The translations under genes and the position numbers were made by a program. From an archaeon GW2011_AR20 (GTDB lineage Archaea; Nanobdellota; Nanobdellia; SCGC-AAA011-G17; GW2011-AR20), in contig CP010426.1 of NCBI GenBank assembly GCA_000830315.1, forward strand, positions 442,743-506,742: a stretch of 64,000 nt of DNA, in the 5' to 3' direction. The notes beneath the pieces were generated by a model. The model saw only the letters and a list, made by a program, of their open reading frames with translations, did not search any database and was not told the DNA's origin. How positions within the stretch are numbered: the first letter of the stretch is position 1; every line of letters starts with the position of its first letter. Positions 34,720 through 36,351 of this stretch are shown one piece after another.

Positions 34720-34761
34720 GATAATCTTAGATATTATAGATTTTTAAATTTATTTATATGC

Positions 34762-34807
34762 TAAATAACAGTATAATTCCTCAAAAAACAATTTCCTGCT
34801 TTCTAAT
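34762..34807 (-). repeat. Orphan copy of the HemK-family gene 3' end (direct repeat of 35842-35887)
   Basis: 46 bp, 4 mismatches, offset exactly 1080; reads LESRKLFFEELYCYL then AYK* versus LESKKLFFEELYCYL then IFR*. Confidence 0.9.
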
Positions 34808-34818
34808 TACTTAAAATA

Positions 34819-34870
34819 GAAAAGTTTATATAGTAACAAAAGTTACCATATGGTAAATAAAATTACCATG
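34819..34870 (+). promoter_or_regulatory. BRE/TATA promoter with GTAAC-N4-GTTAC operator-like repeats
   Basis: GAAAAGTTTATATAGTAAC identical to 2593-2611; GTAAC-aaaa-GTTAC at 34833-34846; second, imperfect copy at 34853-34866. Confidence 0.6.
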
Positions 34871-35446
34871 ATATACCATCATTACCTAGAAACACTTTTT
34901 GGAAGTAAGTTAAAGGTCAAAGTAATCAGAAACTTATATAAGTTTAAAGAAAAATCATTCACCCTAAGGGAATTATCAAAATTATCCAGCATAACTCACC
35001 CGGGTTTATTAAAAGTTTTAGAGGATCTGCATGGAATGAATTTAATAAATCTTGAGAGAATAAGTAACTCCATAATCATAAAATTAAATAGAAAAAGCTT
35101 TTTATTGAATATTTTAAAAATATATGATATAGAAAATAATACTTTAAATGAATTGATTAAAACAATTAAAAAATATTATATTGATAATATCTTTAACACT
35201 GTAGCTTTATTTGGAAGCGTTGTTAGAAATGAAGAGAGATTTGATAGCGATATAGATTTATTAATAATAACTAAAAGCAAAGAATTGGCTGATAATGTTG
35301 CTGAAAAGTGTAAGGTCGAAGTAATCAAAAAATTTGGCAATGTGATTATGCCTTACATCTTGAATAAAAAAGAATTTAATGAAAGTAATATTAGGAAAGA
35401 AATTTTAAAGAATAATATATTAATTAAAGGAGAAGAATTAAAATGA
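34850..35446 (+). CDS. wHTH-nucleotidyltransferase (MNT) antitoxin; true start possibly 34868
   Basis: LFGSKLKVKV...TLRELSK HTH; LFGSVVRNEERFDSDIDL; TTACCATGATA start context matches the locus at 2644. Confidence 0.8.
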   Translation: MVNKITMIYHHYLETLFGSKLKVKVIRNLYKFKEKSFTLRELSKLSSITHPGLLKVLEDLHGMNLINLERISNSIIIKLNRKSFLLNILKIYDIENNTLNELIKTIKKYYIDNIFNTVALFGSVVRNEERFDSDIDLLIITKSKELADNVAEKCKVEVIKKFGNVIMPYILNKKEFNESNIRKEILKNNILIKGEELK

Positions 35447-35844
35447 AAGTAAAACCTGTAGATAGAAGCTTATGTTACAACTATTTAAAAAAAGCAGAGG
35501 AATTTTATCAGACTATGAAAGATGCATTAAACAATAATAGATGGAATGCGGCAGCTTCAAATGCTATACATGCTGGAATTAGCTCTACAGATGCTGTTGC
35601 TATTGCTATTAAAGGGGTAAGAAGCTCAAGTGAAAGGCATGATGATGTTGAAGGAATTTTAAGGGATTTGAATTTAAATATCAAGGAAATGAATGATAAA
35701 CTTGTTCAAATTAAGGGTTTATTGTCTATAAAAAACAGCGTTGAATATGAGGAAAAATTAGTAAATGAAAACACTGCCCTAACTGCTTCTAAAAATGCAG
35801 AGAGATTATTAAAATGGGCAAGAGAAAAATTATCTAAAAATTAA
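35443..35844 (+). CDS. HEPN-domain protein
   Basis: YLKKAEEF...WNAAASNAIHA; KNSVEYE; ATGA overlap with the MNT gene. Confidence 0.75.
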   Translation: MKVKPVDRSLCYNYLKKAEEFYQTMKDALNNNRWNAAASNAIHAGISSTDAVAIAIKGVRSSSERHDDVEGILRDLNLNIKEMNDKLVQIKGLLSIKNSVEYEEKLVNENTALTASKNAERLLKWAREKLSKN

Positions 35845-36351
35845 ATAACAGTATAATTCTTCAAAGAACAATTTCTTGCTCTCTAATAGCTGAAATTTAA
35901 AATCATTCTTCTTAATTAATTTATTTACCTTGTTTTTATTTGTTAATGAGCTGAATACAATTAATATTTTGCCGTTTTTATTTAAGTGTTCATTTGCCTG
36001 ACTAAAAAACTTTTCTAAAATTTCATAACCATGCTTTCCGCCGGTTGTTATTCTTTTGCTTTTTTCATCTTCTAGCTTTTCATCTGGTAAATAAGGAGGA
36101 TTAAATATGATTAAATCAAATTTCCCTGCAACATTTGAGAATAAGTCGGAAATTTTAGCTTTAATTCCTTTCTTTTTAACATAATTTACACTTTCTTCAT
36201 CAACATCAACTGCTAGAACATTTTTTGTAAATCTTAATGCAGCCTCTGCCTGTATTCCAGAACCGGTGCCTATATCTAAAACCTTTCCTTTAGCATATTC
36301 TTCCACATATTTTGCCAGTAATTCAGAATCTTCGCTTCGTTCGTAAATCAT
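35830..36351 (-). CDS. HemK2/PrmC-family methyltransferase
   Basis: EDSELL, LDIGTGSG, FNPPY, GGKHG. Confidence 0.85.
   Translation of the reverse strand: MIYERSEDSELLAKYVEEYAKGKVLDIGTGSGIQAEAALRFTKNVLAVDVDEESVNYVKKKGIKAKISDLFSNVAGKFDLIIFNPPYLPDEKLEDEKSKRITTGGKHGYEILEKFFSQANEHLNKNGKILIVFSSLTNKNKVNKLIKKNDFKFQLLESKKLFFEELYCYLIFR

Follow-up and report, generated by a model that had tools for sequence, protein, structure and literature searches.

To our knowledge, the movement of chromosomal toxin-antitoxin (TA) pairs between genomes without a mobility gene has never been well explained. Campbell-type additive integration ('pop-in/pop-out') is a textbook process and, like homology-facilitated illegitimate recombination in naturally transformable microbes, is familiar chiefly from laboratory genetics and transformation experiments: foreign DNA is brought in through one homologous crossover or anchor and is then flanked by the stretch of homology as a direct repeat; both repeat copies are donor/recipient chimeras, and recombination between them can excise the insert. 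Insertion with a long, variable (about 100 bp) target duplication is known for restriction-modification (RM) gene complexes in bacteria, most of them naturally competent (Nobusato et al. 2000, Gene 259:99; Furuta, Abe and Kobayashi 2010, PMC2853133); the Kobayashi group proposed a cycle of invasion, amplification and release for these complexes, without direct evidence (PMC2853133, PMC3874152), and no archaeal case passed that group's screen (PMC2853133). Among archaeal TA types, HEPN/MNT pairs are the most abundant (PMC2701414, PMC7641770). Our literature search found no paper applying long-target-duplication insertion to TA cassettes, and the one TA review examined makes no mention of it. 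Here we describe an MNT-HEPN cassette at the hemK-trmY locus of the groundwater archaeon GW2011_AR20 (GenBank assembly GCA_000830315.1, contig CP010426.1), in an AT-rich window of 64,000 nucleotides (forward-strand positions 442,743 to 506,742; window position equals genome position minus 442742) from a single-contig genome of 829 kb and 31.7% GC. We consider it reasonably probable that this cassette, together with a foreign hemK tail, was integrated additively by homologous recombination. Direct support comes from the comparison of the insertion with empty sites, the polarity of native and foreign tails, the recurrence of the pattern, and the coding-type divergence between repeat copies.

In the locus, referred to below as W (related loci are numbered L0xx), the cassette stands between hemK and trmY, with one copy of the hemK 3' end on either side:

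34144-34719, minus strand: trmY, tRNA pseudouridine-54 N1-methyltransferase family (Pfam Methyltrn_RNA_2, E 2.4e-43).
34720-34749, 30 nt: native hemK-trmY spacer, carrying the conserved TTTAAAAA motif.
34750-34807, minus strand: orphan hemK 3' end, LESRKLFFEELYCYLAYK*, containing repeat copy 1 (34762-34807).
34808-34867, plus strand: left end of the cassette, with transcription factor B recognition element (BRE) and TATA sequence TTTATATA at 34825-34832 and palindromic operator-like repeats GTAAC-N4-GTTAC and GGTAA-N6-TTACC.
34850-35446, plus strand: MNT, antitoxin-type nucleotidyltransferase gene with an N-terminal winged helix-turn-helix (wHTH) domain (Pfam Polbeta and NTP_transf_2).
35443-35844, plus strand: HEPN, toxin-type gene (Pfam HEPN PF05168, 29.2 bits against a 22-bit cut-off).
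35830-35887, minus strand: working hemK 3' end, ...LESKKLFFEELYCYLIFR*, containing repeat copy 2 (35842-35887).
35830-36351, minus strand: hemK, encoding a 173-aa protein methyltransferase of the HemK2/MTQ2 family, which carries an NPPY motif (NCBIfam TIGR00537, 125.7 bits; cut-off 87 bits).

The original prediction, made from the sequence alone, described a 46-bp repeat with four mismatches, and comparison in the hemK frame bears this out: 34762-34807 and 35842-35887 form a 46-nt direct repeat (91% identity) in which GAG/GAA, TTC/TTT and GAA/GAG are synonymous and AAG/AGG exchanges lysine for arginine. Both copies continue, as predicted, for three codons to a TAA stop, the working copy reading ...LYCYLIFR* (stop 35830-35832) and the orphan ...LYCYLAYK* (stop 34750-34752). 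Upstream, an in-frame TAA (34807-34809) cuts the orphan off. It does lie before trmY in the place of the original hemK end, but the distance to the trmY ATG at 34719 is 30 nt (34720-34749) and not the 31 nt first given. The predicted overlap of the functional copy with the HEPN stop is present (the two genes converge and share 15 nt), and the cassette is indeed without an integrase or transposase gene, the open reading frames (ORFs) and Pfam matches between the repeats comprising MNT and HEPN only; a repeat search found no terminal inverted repeats bounding it. A degenerate pattern of the repeat has 2 sites in the window, exactly these two, against 0 expected (100 shuffles), and the same two are the sole strong copies in the whole genome. 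A looser 77-nt repeat extends over 34746-34822 and 35826-35902 (79% identity, spacing 1080). The two ends differ at 6 of the 12 stop-proximal nt and at 4 of the next 46. In all five same-species loci fetched (L034, L035 and L075-L077) the repeats are unchanged: L075 and L077, independent metagenome assemblies, are 100% identical to W over the 2.6 kb compared, L034 has 2 substitutions, both outside the repeat copies, and L035 and L076 (one strain, assembled twice) have an altered MNT. The structure is thus conserved across independent same-species assemblies and is therefore no assembly artefact.

The locus has much in common with RM complexes inserted with long target duplications. In both, a small addictive unit without a mobility gene lies between direct repeats that exceed 30 bp and occur nowhere else in the genome, one repeat copy is found at the empty site of relatives, repeat lengths are case-specific, the repeats are often at a gene 3' end, and tandem amplification is possible. 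Of the features by which the Kobayashi group recognises such insertions, W has repeats longer than 30 bp that are not multicopy, single-copy empty sites in relatives that align with both flanks (L018, L012, L013 and L030/31) and no mobility genes in or beside the insert. It appears to depart from recipient target duplication, since the stop-proximal part of the working copy is, on short-range evidence, a different, HEPN-linked allele. Whereas the RM cases treat the repeats as a target duplication, one copy in W looks imported from another lineage and carries coding-type differences, which points to homologous recombination as the mechanism.

The identity of the native and imported tails was read from the hemK C-termini of W and its relatives, which are of the following types:

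IER/VER: L012, L013, L018, L011, L036 and L039.
VYK/AYK: L029, L060/L032 and the W orphan.
IFR/IFK/VFR: the W working copy, both L038 copies, L010 and the empty-site L030/31.

The closest relative of W is L029, whose hemK protein is 90% identical and whose working tail is TTATTTATATACTAAATAACCGTATAATTCCTCAAAAAAC... (VYK*). The W orphan shares 54 of 58 positions with this tail; the W working tail has about 11 differences from it, 6 of them within the 12 nt beside the stop. The last 12 nt of the W working tail and 2 more single-nucleotide polymorphisms match instead the junction type of L038, where a HEPN gene ending ...KLSKN* overlaps a hemK ending IFR*. We therefore regard the orphan AYK* as probably native, because it matches the working tail of the closest relative, and the stop-proximal part of the working tail as probably imported, because the IFR* junction type is linked to the HEPN end in a distant relative. 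The imported stretch would run from 35830 to about 35866 and would have arrived with the cassette. These comparisons support the original prediction that the working copy carries a foreign allelic tail and that hemK was regenerated, the gene passing from native sequence into the imported tail. We ruled out that IFR* is a by-product of the overlap with HEPN, since hemK of the empty-site L030/31 natively ends IFK*.

Sliding-window comparison against the relatives suggests that the W region is a three-way mosaic. The cassette body is nearest to L036 (mostly 80-95%, with 77-78% in three windows); the segment 35800-35874, which holds the HEPN end and the stop-proximal hemK tail, is nearest to the second cassette junction of L038 (L038B; 87-91%, against 55-66% for L036 and L029, and 60-66% for L029 by itself); and hemK from 35845 onward is nearest to L029 (90-95%). 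The change back to native sequence therefore lies within the repeat, the pattern that a crossover in a short imported tail would give; had the donor hemK fragment been longer and the crossover placed at random in it, a change point within the repeat would be less probable. The chimera polarity known from Campbell-type integration is also seen here, the working copy being native distally and foreign proximally, and the orphan being native proximally and joined to the native spacer. Unlike the laboratory cases, W would represent a natural, recurrent TA route in DPANN archaea that uses only about 45-130 nt of homology.

The positions of hemK, trmY and the genes around them were mapped in about 25 related loci from metagenome-assembled genomes labelled Woesearchaeota or Nanoarchaeota (DPANN archaea). 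The maps show hemK-trmY as the ancestral adjacency and the gap between the two genes as a cassette hotspot. Empty-site alleles, in which hemK is followed directly by trmY and for which the original prediction had proposed a search, are present in L018 (same genus; hemK stop, 23 nt, then the trmY ATG), in L030/31 (a 30-nt spacer), and in L012 and L013, where the hemK TGA overlaps the trmY ATG. The W spacer equals that of L030/31 in length and in its TTTAAAAA motif, which is also retained beside trmY in L010, L011, L036, L039 and L060 and which we infer to be the trmY TATA box. This motif sits in the spacer, outside the 46-nt repeat, and retention of the orphan as a trmY promoter was rejected, as it leaves retention of the repeat unexplained.

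Other relatives hold cassettes at the site. Two same-genus loci, L010 and L011, contain two different pairs of antitoxin and ParE-family toxin. MNT-HEPN cassettes homologous to that of W (MNT 62-85% identical), always convergent on the hemK stop, are found in L036/37, L060/L032, L029 (HEPN 3' half alone recovered, 84% identical), L039-44 and L038, the last two sets each having two different cassettes in tandem. The W cassette is thus no lone newcomer, a view we rejected on finding MNT-HEPN beside the hemK end widespread in several related lineages, with differing left junctions. The block at the left end of the cassette, to which we would assign a promoter/operator role, is conserved in the homologous cassettes of L036, L038, L039, L045, L060 and L063, and an exact-match search for the block TTTATATAGTAACAAAAGTTAC in the genome-contig collection gave 0 matches. 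The same cassette family, with its promoter/operator block, also occurs downstream of SMC (L045-47 and L061-62) and beside a VapBC pair (L049 and L064). These last two are unrelated assemblies (L049 from G001) of a 66%-identical MNT-HEPN cassette, and both break at the same HEPN residue (113 aa), which suggests that a conserved HEPN 3' end, or a repeated gene tail following it, may confuse assemblers there. In a hemK tree built without the tail, the supported pairs are W with L029 (99/99) and L011 with L036 (98/93); the remainder is mostly unresolved, and for this reason we made no formal count of gains and losses. Nonetheless, L011 and L036 are sisters with different cassettes, and cassette turnover has therefore been recent.

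L038 has the order cassette A (with a frameshifted HEPN), an 84-nt copy of the hemK tail, cassette B, hemK, and its left junction differs from that of W. The tail copy is 97.6% identical to the working tail, whereas cassettes A and B share 75% DNA identity and their MNT proteins 63%. Simple tandem duplication is ruled out by these figures, since uniform divergence after a duplication could not leave tails and cassettes so unequal; the layout can be produced if cassette B and a tail join a resident A-hemK arrangement through recombination in its tail. L039 has nested direct repeats around the first of its two tandem cassettes, at 1336-1605 and 2795-2934, formed by the trmY start and spacer from the other flank (55 nt, 89%) and by a HEPN 3' end (88 nt, 87.5%), which suggests the remains of a third, largely deleted unit.

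The pattern recurs at other genes of the same genome. A second cassette lies 2.4 kb away in the window:

38275-39382: second cassette, bounded by a repeat (38275-38388 and 39269-39382; 114 nt, 85%, spacing 994).
38610-39266, plus strand: its antitoxin-like gene and PIN toxin-type gene (PIN_2, E 6.5e-28).

The 114-nt repeat consists of the 3' end (last codons) of a giant surface-protein gene and the start stub of the next gene. A 330-aa open frame at 38288-39280 on the minus strand runs antisense through the whole antitoxin-PIN cassette, from the duplicated ATGTACAAA stub into the orphan C-terminal anchor of the giant protein; it is rich in N-x-S/T and unexpectedly long at 32% GC. Perhaps the frame is spurious, or perhaps the orphan is still used.

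A self-comparison of the genome for short direct repeats around TA-like pairs found more flanking repeats of 42-127 nt (76-99% identity), spaced 0.8-2.5 kb apart, and brings the further TA-like cassette loci of the genome, the second one in the window included, to at least seven. Their cargo includes MNT/HEPN, ParE-like and aspartyl-protease pairs, and 4 of the 11 MNT genes of the genome are in such cassettes. Six more repeat-flanked loci lie at these genome positions:

142029-143111: RNase Z site.
347920-349179: repeat-flanked locus.
386493-389138: three repeat copies and two cassettes.
734176-735319: repeat-flanked locus.
782991-784038: two repeat blocks in swapped order, as in a circular permutation.
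825825-829164: three repeat copies.

At the RNase Z site, G003, G005 and G008 are empty; G001 and G004, of other species, hold a homologous cassette and an orphan RNase Z tail that differs in length. Their working RNase Z tails have one allele in common, linked to the cassette, and their orphans are similar to the allele of the empty sites. The loci compared at this site are L080 (G001, 2301-3440), L081 (G004), L079, L082 and L083.

Duplication in place followed by decay of the orphan would be expected to spread differences over all codon positions. Pooling five coding repeat pairs (hemK, hemK of L038, the giant gene, RNase Z and a 130-aa gene), we counted 19.5 synonymous (Sd) and 14.5 non-synonymous (Nd) differences over 70 synonymous and 326 non-synonymous sites, a ratio of non-synonymous to synonymous proportions (pN/pS) of 0.16; third codon positions account for 20 of the 34 differing sites (binomial P ~1e-7 against neutrality), and by a rough hand estimate the bias is still significant, at ~1e-4, if half of the divergence path was neutral. 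The original prediction had asked whether a synonymous bias would extend to more examples, and in these five pairs it does; with empty-site alleles also present in relatives, both conditions named there as refuting it turned out in its favour. Because the differences are so strongly synonymous, the repeat copies appear to have diverged mostly while both were coding, in different genomes.

We infer the crossover itself, the topology and transfer route of the incoming DNA, and the TA activity of the pair; the best-supported course of events at W would be the following. The ancestral operon would have been up147-hemK-trmY, with hemK ending just before the trmY start or overlapping it, and the donor would have been a related archaeon in which an MNT-HEPN pair already stood tail-to-tail against hemK. 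The piece that entered would have comprised the cassette with its own promoter and roughly the last 58 nt of the donor hemK, and a homologous crossover inside this short tail, presumably made by the host RadA machinery, would have added it to the chromosome. The incoming DNA may have been circular, with a Campbell-type 'pop-in', or linear and held by homology at only one of its ends: one crossover with a 1080-bp circle would suffice, and one-ended homologous recombination with an illegitimate join gives an identical product. As a result, hemK would run from native sequence into the imported tail IFR*, overlapping the HEPN stop, while the native tail AYK* would be displaced beyond the cassette and left untranslated, an orphan that still holds its old position 30 nt ahead of trmY, and trmY would keep its own promoter-like spacer. 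On this account the cassette would need no recombinase of its own, the conserved hemK 3' end serving as a portable homology arm, which would explain why the same cassette family is found at the site in many relatives, sometimes stacked with a tail between units. TA addiction would favour retention of the cassette, the conserved hemK tail would act as an 'address' that makes the site a hotspot, and pop-out by recombination between the repeats would be a source of new circles. RadA is present in the genome. At genome positions 204629-206836, the Rad51/RadA match is split in two within one 827-aa open frame, which looks like a putative intein-containing radA.

Alternative explanations for W differ in what they predict for the two tails. 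In-place insertion that duplicates a long stretch of the target, where the cassette alone enters a staggered break at the hemK end, fill-in copies about 58 nt, the orphan drifts and the working copy is altered later, would suit repeats that vary in length by site (42-127 nt) and remnants that vary in length by lineage. It predicts two initially identical native copies, whereas the differences at W are clustered beside the stop, the working copy has the allele and HEPN-overlap junction of a distant relative, and the orphan matches the closest one; moreover, the pooled pN/pS of 0.16 misfits neutral orphan decay, and the L038 tails are 97.6% identical beside cassettes at 75%. We consider this explanation unlikely. 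Slightly less credit is due to unequal crossing-over, by which a tandem array of cassette and hemK tail would lose its outer cassette and have its alleles replaced, leaving one cassette and a stranded tail. Arrays of this kind do exist, in L038, in L039 and in this genome (386-389 kb and 825-829 kb), and in L029, the closest relative, a cassette already occupies the site. Against this, the W orphan is joined seamlessly to the native stop and to a 30-nt spacer as in the empty site, which would need a precise deletion between 12-15-nt repeats; tandem duplication predicts equal divergence of tails and cassettes, contrary to L038; and more steps are required.

A tyrosine recombinase or an integron-like integrase encoded elsewhere in the genome might instead act in trans, using the hemK end as an attachment site and moving cassettes that lack an integrase. 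Gene 3' ends are common targets of integrative elements, which supply a substitute for the end, and the elements that carry an integrase and sit at tRNA or protein gene 3' ends resemble W in that the target is regenerated by incoming sequence and a partial gene end is left on the other side. The genome encodes five Phage_integrase-family genes, and arrays with a repeat between units resemble integron arrays, which likewise consist of small recombinase-less cassettes and commonly carry TA cargo. However, integrative elements of this kind, like DNA transposons, encode an integrase or transposase and have a fixed core or terminal inverted repeats, whereas the 1080-bp W unit has none of these and junction positions within hemK vary by lineage. 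No recombinase gene is present in or near the cassette or in the window: all five tyrosine-recombinase genes are outside the window and none is near the cassettes examined, the nearest being about 77 kb from the hemK cassette. Unlike in integrons, there is no adjacent IntI or attI and no common repeat family, the repeat being the coding end of a neighbouring host gene. We looked for a shared att core and rejected it, since the best common words of eight repeat families are AT-rich 7-8-mers (P ~0.04 versus random segments) and the repeats of different loci have no common core beyond such words; an attC-like hairpin or other RNA structure was rejected likewise, since the repeats fold no better than shuffles (z +0.39 to -1.59) and the only Rfam match is a sub-threshold SAM-II elsewhere. 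Recombination in trans is accordingly the least probable of these three mechanisms, and we regard it as quite improbable. As for a viral vector, a search of the viral-contig collection yielded no relative of the MNT protein. Finally, short AT-rich matches are common in a genome of 31.7% GC, but chance similarity or an assembly artefact is refuted for practical purposes, given that 0 matches are expected in shuffles, that the repeat is in frame with a coding tail, and that independent assemblies have the same structure.

Several points nonetheless weigh against a simple additive integration of the cassette with a foreign hemK tail by homologous recombination. All 24 same-species contigs read carry the cassette, and none has an empty site (the exact trmY protein occurs in 70 blocks of the collection), and no circular form or excision product was seen. 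The polarity of the tails is read from one close relative and from short sequences (12 nt plus 2 single-nucleotide polymorphisms), and that relative, L029, also carries a cassette, with the native tail and a different junction, its left side being unrecovered; the W lineage may therefore have had intermediate stages, for example a tandem array and then a deletion. Three parts of the W region have three different nearest relatives, and more than one recombination event has therefore shaped the locus. The synonymous-bias test uses few sites and hand-picked repeats, and would be weaker if the orphans were under constraint of their own. Lastly, remnants of the hemK tail at the left junction measure ~0, 12, 26, 58, 84 or more nt across lineages; these lengths argue against a single circulating element with fixed ends, and independent events or later erosion of orphans would fit these lengths.

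At the domain level, the W cassette is an ordinary HEPN/MNT-type module and a predicted TA pair, in which the toxin would arrest growth and MNT would neutralise it by AMPylation. As in HEPN/MNT systems (HepT/MntA, type VII), MNT comes first and HEPN second in a small two-gene operon whose genes overlap, here by 4 nt (ATGA), and both signature motifs are found: the MNT translation has GS-x10-DxD (GSVVRNEERFDSDID), within the pattern G[SG]-x9-11-DxD, and the HEPN translation has the Rx5H motif RSSSERH, within Rx4-6H. MNT scores 34.2 bits with Polbeta (cut-off 26.9) and 31.6 bits with NTP_transf_2 (cut-off 21). Unlike MntA, it has an added N-terminal wHTH domain, and it scores 25.6 bits with NCBIfam MntA_antitoxin against a cut-off of 60; an NCBIfam search of the HEPN protein gave no match. 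The real start of MNT is probably the ATG at 34868, giving 192 aa, because 192-aa homologues begin at the equivalent ATG. In the strain of L035 and L076, a 48-nt in-frame deletion and a rearrangement at the equivalent of window positions ~35150-35200 shorten MNT to 182 aa from 198, the deletion falling in the linker between the wHTH and nucleotidyltransferase domains.

For the flanking genes, the best NCBIfam match of trmY is TrmY (NF002560), at 162 bits under a 183-bit cut-off, and hemK also matches Pfam MTS (E 5.6e-17). Two further genes lie upstream of hemK:

36676-37119, minus strand: up147, the upstream operon partner, conserved and abutting hemK in most relatives (tblastn maps).
36323-36637, minus strand: up104, a variable small ORF between up147 and hemK, found only in some relatives (tblastn maps).

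Neither up147 nor up104 has a Pfam or NCBIfam match. The up104 frame overlaps the hemK start by 29 nt; it has 83% identity in L029, is faint in L012, L036 and L060 and absent in most relatives, and no repeat flanking it was found. The tyrosine-recombinase (Phage_integrase) genes are located at genome positions 162542, 248108, 253507, 555569 and 777420, many for a genome of 829 kb.

Together, the W locus, the relatives with tandem arrays and the seven or more sister loci of this 829-kb genome offer a concrete, testable answer to how TA pairs without a mobility gene could move: by the end of a neighbouring gene and the homologous recombination of the host. If true, this would account for the repeated presence of one cassette family at one housekeeping gene in related lineages, and it would provide a mechanism for the long-unexplained 'long target duplication' insertions of RM systems. 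It would also mean that gene 3' ends in compact genomes are replaceable by foreign alleles as a side effect, and that exchange of DNA and its recombination are ongoing among uncultivated DPANN archaea. For annotators, short orphan gene ends beside TA pairs would be footprints of integration and not noise. More tentatively, and with less confidence than for W itself, we suggest that DPANN archaea may have a general, recombinase-free form of mobility for addiction cassettes, in which each cassette carries a short copy of a host gene 3' end as its homology arm or 'address', pops in and out by host recombination, regenerates its target, orphans the native end and stacks in integron-like arrays. 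Because the pattern recurs, the mobility of TA cassettes in uncultivated archaea becomes a model that can be tested.

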